A DNA stretch of 27,403 bases from Chthonomonadales bacterium (GTDB lineage: Bacteria; Armatimonadota; Chthonomonadetes; Chthonomonadales; Chthonomonadaceae), in NCBI GenBank assembly GCA_038217285.1, contig JBBQPO010000049.1, positions 1-27,403 on the forward strand, written 5' to 3'. A program made the translations under genes and the position numbers. Below, in pieces: positions 3,197 to 12,800 of this stretch (within the stretch, counting starts at the first letter, position 1; each line of letters starts with the position of its first letter). A model generated the notes under the pieces. The model had not been told where the DNA came from, ran no database searches, and saw nothing but the letters and a program-made list of their open reading frames with translations.

Positions 3197-3610
3197 CTAT
3201 TTGTTGTCTACGCCCGGCTCGAACTTCCCATGCGTCAGGGGATACGTCGCGCTGCAGAATACCTGGAAGGTGGAGTTCGAGGAGCTATTGCCCACGCCGA
3301 GCGTATAGGTGCCCCCGTTTGGGCAGACCGGAACCGACGAAAGGTCGGGAAGGTTGGTGACGACGACGCCGCCCGTGATAAGGGAGCCGAAGTCGGCAGA
3401 CCGACTCTTGACGCGGGCCGCCATCACCGCGTTGGAGATGGACTGCATATTGGAGCGGCAGACCTTCTTGCGCGAATCGTCGACGGCGTTAAGGTAGAGT
3501 GGAAACGCTACGGTCATCAGGATGGACACGATGAGGATCGCCGTGAGGAGCTCGACAAGCGTAAAGCCTTTACTTTTGCGGCGCTTAGAAATAGACTGTC
3601 TTCTGTGCAT
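3197..3610 (-). CDS. Type IV pilin / pseudopilin-like protein with class III signal peptide
   Basis: Basic leader RRKSKG|FTLVELL followed by a hydrophobic helix; PVCPNGGTY and C...HG in the head domain; AAGGAGG RBS. Confidence 0.9.
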   Translation of the reverse strand: MHRRQSISKRRKSKGFTLVELLTAILIVSILMTVAFPLYLNAVDDSRKKVCRSNMQSISNAVMAARVKSRSADFGSLITGGVVVTNLPDLSSVPVCPNGGTYTLGVGNSSSNSTFQVFCSATYPLTHGKFEPGVDNK

Positions 3611-3682
3611 AAGAACCTCCTTGCGGAAAGGCCGGGTCGTGACGATATATCTACCTAATCTACCTTAAACCTATCGAACAGG

Positions 3683-3710
3683 ACATCTGCGAAACGGCAT
3701 ATTTTGCTGA
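3683..3710. promoter_or_regulatory. Copy 2 of the 28-bp shared motif, between the divergent pilin and rho-like genes
   Basis: ACATCTGCGAAACGGCATATTTTGCTGA, 3 mismatches to 246-273. Confidence 0.55.
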
Positions 3711-3759
3711 ACCGTAAAAATCTTTAACTCTTTATTCCTCGCGGCAAACGTGAAAGACG

Positions 3760-3768
3760 TGCTAGAAT
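3760..3768 (+). promoter_or_regulatory. Extended -10 promoter (TGcTAGAAT) for the rho-like gene
   Basis: TGn + TAGAAT about 90 nt upstream of ATG 3858. Confidence 0.5.
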
Positions 3769-3857
3769 AGAGACAACGATCTGTTGTCGTGTAGATGCTG
3801 TCCAGAACGTGATTCCGGCTCTATGCGAGGCGGAATGGGAAGCAGGGAGAAGAGGCT

Positions 3858-5180
3858 ATGGCCCTGAATATCGGCCAGAATGGAATCGTCTTTCGGCAGG
3901 ACGATGGGTCCGTCGCGATCCTGCGTCCGGGGCGCAACGGCGGATCAGGAACACAGATTGCGGTCCCGCCCGAGCTTGCGGAAGCCTTCCGTTTGACGGT
4001 AGGGGACATCGCTTGCGGCGAAATACAGCCCCTTCCGCTGGAAACGACGCCGTCGTATCCAGAGGTGGAACTGGAGCGGCAGGCCGACTGGGACGCCCAG
4101 TTCGACGAACCCAACCCGGATCATGCCGCTGCGCTTCCGACCGTTCGCATCGAGCGCCCCCGGACGCATCAACTTGTATCCATAACAAAAATCAATGGCT
4201 TGCCGGACCTCATTCCCGGTCCCGATGAGACTGGGATCCTGGGACTGGCCGACCGTCCCTTTCCGCAAACGAGACGCTCTCGTTCGGAACGCACGCCGCC
4301 CGACCGCTGGTTGGAACTCGCGGACGGGCATAACCATGCCACAGGACGTACGCTGGATTTTGCGGCCCCACTCGGAGCGGGCGTCTGCGGTTTGGTCTAC
4401 GGGCCACACGGCGCGGGACTGACGCGGACGCTGCAGTCCGTGCTGAACGGCATCGTCAAAAACGCGCCGGACTGTGTGCCATTGGTCCTGTTACTGCGTC
4501 CGAGAGCCGAAGAAGCGACCGAATGGCGGCGACGATTTCCGCAGGCAGATATTGTTGTCGGATCTGGGGCGTTCAGCGAAAGCACCCCCCAGCAGACCTT
4601 GCAGATCTGCGACCTTATGCTCGAAGCCGCCCAGCGTCAGACCGAGCTGGGCCGCGACGTCGTGCTTCTGGTCGATTCGCTCACCGCGCTCTGGGGCACG
4701 ATGCTGGAAGCGGAGCAAGCCGATGCCCAACGAGAGGCCGACGCCTCCCTTTCGCGCCGCCGCATGCGGGAGTGGGTCCAGAAAGCCGGCTGTTTCCACG
4801 GCGAATCGCCGCTCGGCGGCGGACTGGGCGGCTCCCTGACCCTGCTCGGAACCGTCTGGCATCAGACGATCAACTCGGAGGCCGAGGAGGAGCACGACCT
4901 CCATCCGCACCTGCGACTGCTGGAGCATATACTGCCGGAAGCTGCCTGGCTCGTCCCGCTATCCGACACACTCGCACGCCAGAGACTCTATCCGACCATC
5001 GATGTTAAACGGTGCCGTTCACAGAACGAAGAACGGTTGCTGCCCGTCGACAGCAGGGAGAGGCACCTGAAGGCACGCGGCTCTCTTCCCGACCGAGACC
5101 CGCCGGTCTGTTATCTACGCCTGCAGCAGGCGCTCGACGCTTCGACGGATCGGGAGGGCTTACTCAAAGCCCTCGGCTAG
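3858..5180 (+). CDS. Divergent transcription termination factor Rho paralog, predicted ATPase-inactive
   Basis: Collinear Rho motifs: FRLTVGD (OB fold), INGLP, RTLDFAAPLGAG, GRDVVLLVDSLT (Walker B), GGSLTLLGT, RLYPTID...EERLL. Walker A reads GPHGAGLT. Confidence 0.85.
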   Translation: MALNIGQNGIVFRQDDGSVAILRPGRNGGSGTQIAVPPELAEAFRLTVGDIACGEIQPLPLETTPSYPEVELERQADWDAQFDEPNPDHAAALPTVRIERPRTHQLVSITKINGLPDLIPGPDETGILGLADRPFPQTRRSRSERTPPDRWLELADGHNHATGRTLDFAAPLGAGVCGLVYGPHGAGLTRTLQSVLNGIVKNAPDCVPLVLLLRPRAEEATEWRRRFPQADIVVGSGAFSESTPQQTLQICDLMLEAAQRQTELGRDVVLLVDSLTALWGTMLEAEQADAQREADASLSRRRMREWVQKAGCFHGESPLGGGLGGSLTLLGTVWHQTINSEAEEEHDLHPHLRLLEHILPEAAWLVPLSDTLARQRLYPTIDVKRCRSQNEERLLPVDSRERHLKARGSLPDRDPPVCYLRLQQALDASTDREGLLKALG

Positions 5181-5258
5181 ACGGAAACCCCCAACCAAAA
5201 AAGCCGTTCTCCCCGGCGACGACGGGGCAGTCACTCTAAGCGGCCAACCGCTGAAGGT

Positions 5259-5309
5259 TCGTAATTTCTACGAGGCCAGCGAGATCAGCACGCGCGAAAT
5301 TTCTACGAG
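5259..5309. repeat. Two AATTTCTACGAG direct repeats 35 bp apart; the first forms a TCGTA-N5-TACGA palindrome
   Basis: Exact 12-mers at 5263-5274 and 5298-5309, upstream of the ferritin gene. Confidence 0.6.
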
Positions 5310-5401
5310 CGTTGACCGGACGGCTACTTAGTACCGAGGAACTATCGGGGTGAACGAGCAGGGGTATGGACAAAGGAGAACGCAGTTGCGGTTCTATCCA
5401 G

Positions 5402-5428
5402 GGAACCTGAGCTGGCTCATACGCGTCT
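5402..5428 (+). promoter_or_regulatory. ECF sigma-type promoter GGAACC-N16-CGTCT
   Basis: Matches the generic ECF GGAAC/CGT geometry; the same layout recurs at 17655-17681. Confidence 0.6.
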
Positions 5429-5532
5429 GGTCTAAAGTCCGTTAGAAGAAAGCGGGCTGTTCAGAAACCGTGTCTATCACAGCAAAAATTCCGTTCACGG
5501 TGCCACGAGGCCCCGACTCGAAGGAGAGAAAT

Positions 5533-6009
5533 ATGTCCCACCCCGAAGATCTGACGATCACCCGTAAGCAGCTCATCGATCTCCTGAACGAAGACCTGTC
5601 GCGCGAGTACCAGGCCATAATCGCCTATATCAACTATTCCCAGGTGCTGAAAGGCGCTGAGTATATGAGTATCGCGAAAGAACTGGAAGTTCACGCCGGC
5701 GAGGAACTCGCGCATGCCCTGACCATCGCAGGCCAGATCGACTATCTGGGCGGGATGCCAACCGTGACGCCACAGCCGGTGAAAACGTCGGAGAAGCCCC
5801 AGGATATGCTGCGCTTCGATCTCGATAACGAGAACGTGACCATCGCCAACTACCGTGTTCGCGTTCGGCAGTGCGAGGCGCTGGGCGAGTATGCCATCGC
5901 GGAGAATATCCGGCGCATTCTGGTGCAGGAGCAGGAGCATCAGATCGATCTCGCCACCGCACTTGGTGTGGACGTTCCCGACGTGACGACCCCGGAACAG
6001 CGCGCGTAG
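5533..6009 (+). CDS. Ferritin-like (bacterioferritin-type) diiron protein
   Basis: LNEDLSREYQAIIAY, EELAHA and QEQEHQ ferroxidase-type ExxH motifs; AAGGAG RBS before ATG 5533. Confidence 0.9.
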   Translation: MSHPEDLTITRKQLIDLLNEDLSREYQAIIAYINYSQVLKGAEYMSIAKELEVHAGEELAHALTIAGQIDYLGGMPTVTPQPVKTSEKPQDMLRFDLDNENVTIANYRVRVRQCEALGEYAIAENIRRILVQEQEHQIDLATALGVDVPDVTTPEQRA

Positions 6010-9833: not shown

Positions 9834-12800
9834 TCATCGATATGTTGATCGTTCCAGCCGGTCGATATGCCATCGCACGACCTCCAGTACGGGCATGGAA
9901 GCAGTAAATCCGAGGTAGCTCATCAGCTTCTGGGAGGCGGGATCGCATTCGGATGCCAGAACCGGGCGTTTCAATGCGGCGAAGAAGCGTTCGTTCGCCC
10001 GCCACATGATGAGAGAAAACGCAATCTCCTGCGACGCGGGAAGACGGATGCGGGTGCTCAAAGTCACATAGGGCGCCAGATAGGGCGCACGCGCCATCTC
10101 TCCATTCGGCAGACGGACCACAAGCCCGCCGTTGCGCGAACCGAACAGGAAATCGCGGAAGTCGACGACATCGTAGAAGTCCTGGTAGTCGATCTGATCG
10201 ACGTGGAGCGCCTCGATGGAACGTGTCTGCTCCAGGAGTGACAGCACACGGGTGATACGAATGTTCTGGGGAAACACCGCCATCATCATGCGCATGGTGC
10301 GGCCCGAGGCGATATCGTCGTCGAGGAGCGCGTAGTCTCCGGGCGGAATCGCTTTGACCTGTTCGGTTATCCGGGGGCAGCCGGGACGGGGCGTCACCTG
10401 TGTGGAGAAGCACTGCCCGTCCGCCAGCCCGAAAAGCCGCGACACCTCCAGCCGATGTGAGCCATCGGTGCAGGTATCCAGGGTGATCGTCTCTAGCTCC
10501 TGCCGGAGCGCGTCGGCGTCGGCGTAGGCGACCTGTCCCTCCAACGCCGGAATCTCGATCTTCAATGCCAGCGCCACATCGGGCAGCGGAGGCCGCGCGT
10601 AGGCTGCGCAAAGGGATGTTCGGAGACTCGTGAGCAACTGCATCCTCGCCTCGACCAGTTTCACAGCGTCCCGTCCCTGCTCCCACGGCTGAACCGCCCA
10701 ACCGCTCTCATCCCGAATCAGGAACCATCGCTCCGGGAGTCGCCAGGGCGGGACCGGGCCACGCGCGAGGTTCGCCTTCAGTCCGCCGTAGTAACGGTTG
10801 GAACGCTCCGGCATCGCCTCCATTTCCTCTGAACGAATGCGCGAAGAAGAGATATTGAAATACTCGAGGCGTGGTCTGGCAAAGGCGATGCGGGTGTGGC
10901 TCGGCCCAATCTCCTGCTTCATGGCCACCACTTCACTTTCGTAGCCCGGCCGCTCGATACAGACGGCATAGCCCTGGCGCAGGAAGGTGCGCCCAAACGC
11001 AGCGTTGTCGCCCCCGAAAACGTAGCCGACGCGCACTGGAACCGGCACGCGCAGATGGTGGTTCAGGTAGCGCTCAAGCCGATCAATGACCTCCGTGTAG
11101 TTGACGGCGCACGGCACGTAGCGCACCTCCCAGGGATCGACCATGAGCCACTCGCTGAGCGCGACGGCCTCATGGCACAGACGCAGCCGGTGCGCATCGA
11201 GCAGCCCCGCAGTGCCGTCGTGCTTGGCAGAGACGTAGGAGTCGTGCGAGGGAGAGAGGTAGCCGCCGAGCACGACATGCCCCAGCTCGATCATCGCATT
11301 TTTCGCCAACTCCATCATGTCGAGATGGCCGTTGTGGATCGGAGAGAAGCCTCCGGTCGTGAGCAGTACAAGCGGAGGGTACGCGATCAACTGAGCCGGA
11401 TCGTACTCGTCCAGTTGGGACAGCCGGCGGAGAATCTTGTGGTAGGGCGTGGTCAGCCAGTTCGGGTCGGTATAGCAGTCCGCATCCAGCTCCGTGTCGA
11501 GGCCGTCGTCGAAGAAGCCTGCCTGGCGGAACGCTTCCCGGCTCTGATACCGGGGGCGCATGGCCCTATAGTAGGGCAGACGATGGTCGAACACCAGACA
11601 AGCGCCCGCTTCCGGTTCTACCCGGCGACAGATTTCCGCCTCCTCGGCAAAGCGTGGCCAGTCGTCGAGATTGCGTTCCGACACCGGTCGTTGTGCCTGT
11701 CCGTCACGAACGAATCGGGTCGCGCCGCCCTCGCCTCCACCGGCATCGAGGTAGAGTATCACGGAAACCAGCGTACGCTTGCCTTCATGATAGACGAACG
11801 GAGCGTCGTAGTGCGGGACGAGCGCCCCACCATGCCGGTAGCGGATAAAACGCAAGAGGGGATTGACACCGACGGCCCTCCAGACGGGAGGGCCGTCCCA
11901 GTCGGTCGCCGCAGTGGCATCCAGGATGCGGGGGCTGCCGACGTACGCACCTATCCGGTTCCAGAGGGTCCGTATGGGTGAGGTAGAGTGAGTTGTTCCA
12001 TCCGCCTGGAGTCGCCGCGTGAAGAATATCCAGATGCATGGCTGGCGACTTTCCGATATACTTATGCCGGTTGTAGCGATGTAGCTCCTCCAGGTTGTGC
12101 GCAAAGAACGCAAACTGCGCCTCCGCTTCCGGGCTCCATTCGCGTCGGAAGGAATTGCGCTCGTCCACACTGCCCAGATCCTTCCAGAGCAGGTAGAGCT
12201 CCACGAAGTCGTAGGGCGCACCGAACACCTCCTCGTCTGCGCGACCATCGTATATGTCGCCTGTCGGAGTCGCCTGCAGCACCGATTCGGGAGCGCCCAG
12301 TGATTTCGCGACAGCATACACCTCGCTCTTATGCAGGTCCGAGAGCACCTGCACACCTACCATCGCGTCGGAGGCCCTGCCGATAAACCCCAGATAGCCG
12401 CCTTCGTCCCGGTTGGTCGTGCCGAGCAGCACTGCCGCATGACCCTGCTGCGTCAGGAGGCTGGTTATATAGTAGAGGGCAGGCGTGCGCGCATAGGAGA
12501 CGAGCTGTCCGGAAGCCCATGGCTCGCCACGTACCTCCATAGCCGTGTCCACAGCGGCCTTGATCGCGGTATGTCCGGCAGAGAGGTCTATTTCGACAGG
12601 CTCTATTCCAAACCTCCGTGCAACCTCTCAGCCCTTCGATGTCGCCTCGCTCTGATGGGTCGCACCGGCATCGAACACCGGCATCAGCACCGCCACGATC
12701 TTCTTGATCGGTGAATCCGCCTGCGCTTTCGCCCGCGCCGCCAACCCCAACGCCACCGCCGAATCGACGCCTCCACTGACCCCAAGCACGCACGCCTCCA

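Follow-up and report, generated by a model that had tools for sequence, protein, structure and literature searches.

Rho is a very well studied ring motor, and published second copies of it, in the portions of the literature cited here, are described as catalytically intact. According to passages of Moreira et al. (2024, PMC11347177), rho is present in two or more copies in 116 of 2730 genomes, chiefly those from Actinomycetota and from the PVC group; in the short Rho forms, catalytic residues and bicyclomycin pocket are preserved, and hetero-hexamers are raised as a possibility for pairs of full-length and short Rho. The same passages describe the 'Group B' short Rho of D'Heygere et al. (2013). 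Here, we describe a rho-like gene at positions 3858–5180 (+) of a contig from a Chthonomonadales bacterium (Armatimonadota; contig JBBQPO010000049.1, assembly GCA_038217285.1), whose analyzed stretch of 27,403 nt we call the window. The product is very probably a lineage-restricted, selectively maintained and catalytically dead descendant of Rho. Like the Group B or NF041509 short forms, it is the product of a second rho-like gene in a genome that also has a full-length rho, and it has no N-terminal domain; unlike Group B as portrayed in those passages, the catalytic residues are not kept in its family. Second Rho copies are already known; what is new here is the conversion to a pseudo-enzyme. 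Full-text literature searches returned no paper describing a catalytically dead Rho paralog.

Two other kinds of protein bear comparison. In the F1, V1 and A1 ATPases, non-catalytic alpha or B subunits alternate with catalytic paralogs in hetero-hexamers, and these proteins belong to the ATP-synt_ab superfamily. Like F1 alpha and V1 B, the paralog is an apparently non-hydrolyzing, selection-kept relative of a ring ATPase from the same superfamily; unlike them, it is accessory and patchy in occurrence, not an obligate co-inherited subunit. The second comparison is with proteins that bind and inhibit Rho, among which a 2025 review (PMC12360218) lists Psu, Rof, Hfq and others. In the passages of that review cited here, the direct inhibitors listed are all unrelated to Rho, and a Rho paralog goes unmentioned. 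If the paralog is directed at Rho, the outcome would be the same, with Rho held inactive by binding, but the folds of Psu, Rof and Hfq are unrelated to that of the paralog, and none of them derives from Rho.

Results

Relationship to Rho

The gene is an intact open reading frame (ORF) with an ATG start and 440 amino acids plus stop, as given in the ORF list of the window, and ATG 3858 aligns with the conserved MxLxIxxNGIV start of its orthologs. Pfam yields only a sub-threshold match to ATP-synt_ab (PF00006; 26.3 vs 29.5 bits, residues 164–386), and neither Rho_N nor Rho_RNA_bind matches at E ≤ 1. The NCBIfam Rho models TIGR00767 (90.2 bits, cut-off 509.45) and NF006886 (93.6 bits, cut-off 315) are both missed, and the score on NF041509, paralog_Rho2, also stays below its cut-off (90.8 vs 628). 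Fifteen short or divergent Rho forms score 228–541 bits on the Rho models, against 90 for the paralog, and 228–521 bits on NF041509, against 90.8.

In a phmmer search of the PDB sequences, the paralog matches 11 Rho sequences (E 1.3e-21 to 1.5e-17), with no non-Rho family below E 0.04, and its alignment to the E. coli-type Rho chain is gap-free through the P-loop region. When the family alignment (A3) is compared with one of canonical Rho (A4), hhalign reports a probability of 100% and an E-value of 7.9e-51 over 365 columns. The span begins with paralog residue 1 opposite residue 54 of the organism's own Rho and runs through to both C-termini, which identifies the product as related to Rho along its full length, though the N-terminal helical domain is missing; about 53 N-terminal Rho residues are absent. 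Identity to the organism's own Rho is ~29% over the C-terminal domain (CTD). An AlphaFold2 (AF2) model has a predicted local distance difference test (pLDDT) value of 82.6 and a predicted template modeling score (pTM) of 0.83, with disorder at residues 63–98 and 120–127. All 25 Foldseek matches listed from the PDB are Rho (best E 1.0e-22; TM 0.64–0.70). Canonical Rho (TIGR00767/NF006886; PDB 1pv4, 3ice, 8q3n) thus has the same fold along the whole length of the paralog, and the two have in common the core strands, the Walker B sequence DSLT, GGSLT, R-x-EE-x-T and an RxxPAID-type motif. Unlike canonical Rho, the paralog has acidic helices in place of the Q and R loops, Leu in place of the Walker A Lys, and Pro or Ala in place of the catalytic Glu. 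The parts of the gene are as follows, with the evidence in parentheses.

3858..5180, + strand: coding sequence of the Rho paralog (ORF, hidden Markov model (HMM), phmmer, hhalign)
3858..4037, + strand: OB-fold domain matching the Rho RNA-binding domain, residues 1–60 (hhalign, AF2 model)
4038..4166, + strand: acidic, variable, disordered linker, residues 61–103, an insert relative to Rho (pLDDT, alignment)
4167..4337, + strand: last OB strand (INGL) and connector between N-terminal domain and CTD, residues 104–160 (alignments)
4401..4424, + strand: degenerate P-loop GPHGAGLT, residues 182–189 (phmmer, alignment A1)
4488..4520, + strand: LLLRPRAEEAT, residues 211–221, with Pro215 at the catalytic-Glu position (alignments)
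4659..4685, + strand: Walker B strand VVLLVDSLT, residues 268–276, retained (alignments)
4701..4745, + strand: conserved acidic helix replacing the Rho Q loop, residues 282–296 (alignments, model)
4872..4928, + strand: acidic stretch and HPHLRLLEH, replacing the Rho R loop/KGTGN region, residues 339–357 (alignments)
5022..5024, + strand: codon of Q389, at the Rho Arg-finger position (phmmer, hhalign)

In the AF2 model, the OB domain comprises strands 10–13, 19–23, 32–35 and 52–58 (block-mean pLDDT 85–91), pLDDT falls below 50 across linker residues 63–98, and helices span 275–285 and 291–295 in the region that replaces the Q loop. The linker varies in length and is missing from some orthologs (A1). 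Besides this insert, acidic helices lie near residues 283–296 and 340–347.

Replaced and retained residues

Three sets of sequences were used to follow individual positions. Alignment A1 consists of 20 orthologs from the genome search, entered without any motif filter, a 249-aa fragment from genome G010 being excluded. A larger set of 108 family proteins (395–520 aa) comes from word-indexed and profile searches of databases. Alignment A3 (104 rows) was chosen by the P-loop motif, so that the invariance of H184, G187 and L188 within it is circular; its other columns are unaffected. We take the relevant E. coli Rho residues to be K184, E211, R212, D265 and R366, a numbering that agrees with the chain coordinates of the phmmer alignment. 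All column counts below refer to A3 unless another set is named. Rho motifs are assigned their roles after the introduction of Moreira et al. (2024, PMC11347177).

The three residues most directly tied to ATP hydrolysis are replaced. In the Walker A motif, Rho APPKAGKT becomes GPHGAGLT, with L188 (codon 4419–4421) in place of the second Lys; His184 and Leu188 stand in for the Rho P-loop Pro and the Walker A Lys, respectively. The pattern GxH[GA]xGL[TS] is present in 20/20 unfiltered orthologs. Across the 108 family proteins, the Lys position is occupied by Leu (104), Met (3) or Val (1), and never by Lys or Arg. Around the catalytic Glu, IDERPEEV becomes LRPRAEEA, and the Glu itself becomes P215 (codon 4500–4502); family members have Ala (65), Pro (27), Ser (7), Thr (2), Arg (2) or Cys (1) in this column, and none of the 104 has Glu. 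At the Arg finger, SGTRKEE becomes CRSQNEE, with Q389 (codon 5022–5024) as the substitute. This last column varies (Gln in 40 rows, Arg in 38, others in 26 of 104), and Arg is found in 2/20 unfiltered orthologs.

Beyond these sites, the joint alignment, which took in 38 canonical Rho sequences, reveals a set of motifs that are at least 90% conserved in canonical Rho and are all replaced in the paralogs: GQR before the P-loop, the Arg after Walker B (R269-equivalent), the Q-loop stretch, the R-loop stretch and KGTGN. The replacements are themselves conserved. They include W279 (Trp in 104/104), an acidic helix of consensus LEAEEADAQxEAD in which Q291 and D295 are each invariant (104/104), an 8-residue insert, and an acidic stretch followed by HPHLRL (H349 in 103, P350 in 103, H351 in 100 and R353 in 104 of 104). 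Three connector arginines, R133, R140 and R145, are Arg in 104/104 rows each, and altogether 32 columns are invariant across the 104 family sequences. In the OB domain, the GWGFL and DIYV of the organism's own Rho become SVAIL and QIAV, so that the RNP-type aromatics are gone. All 20 paralogs have a net charge of −13 to −28, vs −8 for the organism's own Rho. A side observation concerns the C-terminus, where several distant family members (orthologs L018, L019, L021 and L024, and P0122–P0124) carry a tail with W-[DNR]-x-L-[FW] followed by acidic residues. This tail, which is absent in the genus of the window, looks like a docking motif.

Much of this had been read from the letters of the window in a first-pass annotation, which proposed a non-catalytic Rho paralog on an intact scaffold. 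The present comparisons bear out that proposal: the scaffold runs from the OB domain to the C-terminus of Rho, the three catalytic substitutions recur in the phmmer alignment with their codons placed exactly as proposed, and catalytic substitutions are found family-wide. The proposed OB-domain changes reappear against the organism's own Rho, with GWGFL where GFGFL had been given. The absence of the N-terminal helical domain (the paralog begins at own-Rho residue ~54), the loss of the Q- and R-loop sequences, the acidic insert (the disordered linker 61–103 plus the acidic helices) and the intact 440-codon frame were likewise recovered.

Several Rho residues do remain. R216, the Arg valve, and the conserved Glu pair E218 and E219 are each invariant (104/104); D273, the Walker B Asp, is Asp in 101 rows and Glu in 3, and position 189, after the loop, is Thr in 92 and Ser in 12. 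These residues, together with the Arg retained in the Arg-finger column of 38/104 family members, are what could be said for a still-active ATPase and terminator with an unorthodox catalytic site. Against such an enzyme stand the absence of Lys or Arg at the Walker A position in all 108 proteins, the absence of Glu from the catalytic-Glu column, and Rho HMM scores of 90–94 bits, compared with 260–540 for active short forms; judged from sequence, it is very improbable. Given the loss of the motor residues and the established mechanisms of P-loop proteins and of Rho, the paralog would not be an ATP-driven RNA translocase and must act by binding.

Selection

Rates of nonsynonymous (dN) and synonymous (dS) substitution were estimated by the Nei-Gojobori method on codon alignments. 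For ten within-genus pairs, dN/dS is 0.10–0.19 for the paralog and 0.011–0.025 for canonical rho of the same genomes; dS of 1.0–3.0 is saturated, making these ratios rough. When all 55 pairs are taken, the paralog ratio spans 0.10–0.37 in 54 of them and is undefined in one. Regional values from five close pairs are lowest in the ATPase-like domain (residues 161–400; 0.06–0.11), slightly higher in the OB domain (0.07–0.13, one pair undefined) and highest in the disordered linker (residues 61–103; 0.40–0.53). The dead motor domain is therefore the most constrained part of the protein. By these data, purifying selection acts on the family-specific motifs and on the ATPase-like domain as a whole.

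The paralog also changes quickly. Within the genus, canonical Rho is 96–98% identical and the paralog 60–75%, and dN over the same ten pairs is 0.155–0.319 for the paralog against 0.012–0.032 for rho. This roughly tenfold faster evolution is the one feature expected of a decaying pseudogene or a chance ORF. That explanation has next to no probability, and is already refuted by the conservation data: frames of 371–509 aa are intact in 20 genomes, the family extends to 141 database clusters, its dN/dS is 0.06–0.19, and its motifs are invariant. The view of the first-pass annotation that the paralog is maintained is upheld by these ratios, well below 1, and by the orthologs in 20/40 relatives described next.

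Distribution and origin

The genome that holds the window (6.2 Mb in 459 contigs, 95% complete) has its own canonical rho on another contig, where the first-pass annotation had asked for one to be sought (genome G000, contig C8, 15034–16269). That gene scores 618.7 bits, above the cut-off of 509, and the paralog scores 84.2 in the same scan. A tblastn search of the whole genome with the paralog matches only the paralog itself and canonical rho. GC content at third codon positions (GC3) is 71.2% for the paralog and 70.6% for rho, and because the two are so close there is no compositional sign of recent import.

An ortholog (E ≤ 3.3e-69, 46–75% identity) was detected in 20 of the 40 relatives searched, with counts by family of 15/24 (f1), 5/14 (f3) and 0/2 (f2). 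A match at the level of canonical Rho is present in 17 of these 20 paralog-bearing relatives, and the remaining three genomes are 67–79% complete. In an even sample of the phylum, the paralog occurs in 14 of 301 genomes, the window's included (f1 7/17, f3 6/15), and in none of 268 genomes from 43 other Armatimonadota families. It was found, then, in only two families of one Armatimonadota order, an order of soil and sediment bacteria. Genomes of the order that carry the paralog average ~5.6 Mb (n = 14) and those that lack it ~4.1 Mb (n = 20); this contrast uses rounded sizes and related, not independent, genomes.

A word-indexed database search returned 141 clusters at E ≤ 1e-10. Four of these are NCBI hypothetical proteins of Chthonomonadaceae or Chthonomonadales bacteria, and further clusters were auto-named Rho or hypothetical protein by JGI. 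In a profile search of 1.84 billion representatives, the family scores 195–665 bits (15 rows, fragments included), and the next score is at most 161. Four rows inspected below this gap have a Rho-type P-loop with Lys; over all 135 rows below it, the Walker A Lys was found in 95, and the P-loop pattern missed the other 38. As a lead only, the nearest ESM Atlas clusters are Rho-family proteins of ~375 aa, commonest in Planctomycetota, Verrucomicrobiota, Gemmatimonadota and Actinomycetota.

A tree of 84 rows was built under a mixture model from 24 paralogs, 11 Rho of the order, every third of the 135 representatives, and four outgroups (F1/FliI-type proteins of the same genome). The paralogs form a single clade, with 100 in the Shimodaira–Hasegawa-like approximate likelihood-ratio test (SH-aLRT) and a stem of 2.6 changes per column, and the canonical Rho of the order form a separate clade. 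The paralogs adjoin two divergent Rho-like proteins with a support of 92, a value not starred in the tree; this sister grouping may be due to long-branch attraction. The tree was then reduced to 44 rows under LG+G4 by leaving out one long outgroup row together with half of the rest. Constraining the paralogs to group with the Rho of the order gave a log-likelihood 34 units better than the free quick search, and a p-value of 0.91 in the approximately unbiased test (p-AU), so in-lineage duplication is not rejected. Such a duplication, followed by fast divergence, would fit the narrow distribution.

The divergent Rho-like group to which P0159 and P0183 belong deserves separate mention. These proteins of 464–469 aa have a Rho_N-like start and an intact GKT, with Ala at the catalytic-Glu position (DARPEE), and are without KGTGN and the Arg finger. 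They score 228–310 bits on the Rho models, and group with the paralog family in one tree, possibly by long-branch attraction.

Gene neighborhood and upstream region

In the window, the paralog lies between a divergent gene for a 137-aa prepilin-type protein (3197–3610, −) and a ferritin-like gene (5470–6009, +). Farther upstream (339–2471) are an Nramp-type transporter and a DtxR/MntR-type regulator with a FeoA domain. This metal-gene neighborhood, in particular the transporter and the regulator, is shared only with the same-genus genome G001. Fourteen other ortholog loci of up to ~13 kb each were cut out for comparison, and the paralog ORF was recovered in 13 of them. Its neighbors there are PBP2 and RecN in two genera, hybrid histidine kinases in two, and elsewhere SAICAR synthetase, LplA/B, an aldo-keto reductase, a WD40 protein or a LacI-type regulator, and their Pfam families are those of unrelated housekeeping genes. 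Synteny extended no farther than the same genus or close to it. Since the neighbors differ between lineages, the paralog gene appears to stand alone. The PADLOC defense-system models gave no matches.

In a further explanation, the former ATP site would serve as a non-hydrolyzing sensor pocket for a nucleotide-like ligand or a metal ion, and would report through the assembly state of the protein. The pocket would be formed by the Gly-rich loop with His184 and Thr189, by Asp273, R216 and E218/E219, and by the HPH motif. Consistent with a sensor, the loop is invariant rather than decayed in the 20 unfiltered orthologs, and the family retains the Arg-valve residue, the Walker B Asp and the residue at the Walker A Thr position. 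Constraint is also strongest in the ATPase-like domain, and the gene is flanked by the Nramp/DtxR-type pair and the ferritin-like gene. However, these metal genes surround it only in the window and in G001, and by established P-loop chemistry a hydrophobic Leu, Met or Val at the Lys position argues against phosphate binding. From the residues and the gene context, we consider a sensor pocket improbable.

Two features lie upstream of the gene.

3845..3855, + strand: Shine-Dalgarno-like GGGAGAAGAGG, 2–12 nt upstream of the ATG (sequence, upstream alignment)
3760..3768, + strand: TGCTAGAAT, candidate extended −10, unverified (string present in the sequence)

The GGGAG at 3845–3849 within the first is mostly conserved among four aligned upstream regions of the genus. 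An extended −10 promoter had been put forward in the first-pass annotation as part of its evidence, and this element did not hold up. The string is present at 3760–3768, yet it sits in a stretch of ~56 nt that is absent from genus members G001, G002 and G003, and a sigma-70 consensus scan of 3560–5500 found no promoter-like sites. Just 3′ of the candidate −10, in the same genome-specific stretch, is a 6-bp inverted repeat (GACAAC-N5-GTTGTC, 3772–3788), which was flagged as terminator-like on the minus strand.

A conserved block at 3679–3706 was considered as an element of the paralog and rejected, as it belongs to the divergent prepilin-like gene. The motif in question, ACATCTGCGAAA[CT]GGCA, has 16 sites in the genome with at most two mismatches (window 3679–3706; contigs C67, C198 and C279 of G000). 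At a minimum of five of these, it lies 72–98 nt upstream, on the opposite strand, of near-identical genes for prepilin-type (N-methyl) proteins of ~137 aa, including the gene at window 3197–3610. The motif resembles a promoter or leader element common to the members of a multi-copy pseudopilin family. A prepilin-type gene is found within two genes of the paralog in three lineages; with 63 ORFs in the genome carrying that motif, this is a lead only. Elsewhere in the window (9834–12356, −), an 839-aa ORF combines 2OG-Fe(II) oxygenase/PhyH-like and cytidylyltransferase-like domains, an unusual fusion.

Discussion

The evidence above describes a protein that keeps the OB-fold domain, connector and RecA-type domain of Rho. 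Gone are the N-terminal helical domain, the Walker A Lys, the catalytic Glu and a fixed Arg finger; so are the aromatics that bind RNA at the primary site and, in the RNA channel, the Q and R loops. In place of these, the family carries invariant motifs of its own. What such a protein binds is less certain than its descent. We tentatively favor the idea that the paralog still oligomerizes through its RecA-type core and acts on the canonical Rho of the cell, a reading that we regard as quite possible though far from assured. Oligomerization is expected from the preservation of the RecA-type core, which builds Rho rings and is better kept than any other part of the protein. In favor of action on Rho are the loss of every autonomous activity, the constant presence of rho alongside the paralog, and the non-catalytic subunits of related ring ATPases as a precedent.

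How the paralog might act on Rho can be pictured in two ways. The likeliest would be entry into mixed rings with canonical Rho. There, the ATP sites at either face of a paralog subunit would be put out of action, and its acidic helices would sit where RNA should run. Alternatively, it could bind Rho as an acidic mimic of RNA. In either mode, its role would be accessory, as a brake on Rho-dependent termination or an adaptor for it. The most specific version, a dosage-tunable pseudo-enzyme subunit that enters or caps Rho rings, kills the ATP sites it touches and lines the RNA channel with acid as a termination brake, is one that we consider rather unlikely as it stands.

Several observations weigh against an action on Rho. 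No result shows any contact between the two proteins, and the paralog is dispensable, as it was not found in 20 genomes of the order that are 90–100% complete. In the loci compared, neither rho nor nusG is syntenic with the paralog, and conservation of neighbors ends at the genus level. NusG copy number does not track paralog presence; some genomes with the paralog (G034, G036, G039) and some without it (G031, G032) alike have a second NusG-domain gene. Conservation of canonical Rho is the same whether or not the paralog is present, and no convincing Rho residue tracks its presence in a comparison of 11 bearing with 16 lacking genomes, where the 10 columns flagged, all conservative changes or in the variable N-terminus, are confounded by phylogeny. 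Finally, family-specific invariant residues replace those of Rho on both faces of the former ATP site, a pattern that fits co-evolution within a homo-oligomer at least as well as docking onto a nearly invariant Rho.

This last point leads to the main alternative. The paralog may form its own homo-oligomer, a ring or otherwise, whose acidic channel and remodeled pocket bind a non-RNA ligand (a basic protein tail, a polycation or some other component of the cell) with no tie to Rho or termination. We regard this as a serious, if tentative, possibility. The joint remodeling of the two faces (H184, L188 and R214 on one face; on the other, HPHLRL and a lost Arg finger) speaks for it, as do the very long stem branch from Rho, with its 2.6 changes per column, and the fact that neither a Rho residue pattern nor a NusG link tracks the paralog. 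The invariant connector arginines R133, R140 and R145, which face invariant acidic helices, could also be self-complementary. On the other side, the gene context, with neighbors that differ between lineages, points to no partner or ligand, and no fused forms were found; longer fusions were sought at E ≤ 1e-40, which by the search tool's own note is weak evidence.

Whichever partner the paralog has, its family shows that a Rho scaffold can be turned to a purely binding role: neither ATP hydrolysis nor either RNA site survives, purifying selection is strong, and new invariant motifs have appeared. Without an action on Rho, the paralog would be a clear-cut example of a helicase ring recruited to a new function. 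If it does, it would represent a new kind of endogenous control of termination, comparable to the non-catalytic subunits of the rotary ATPases.

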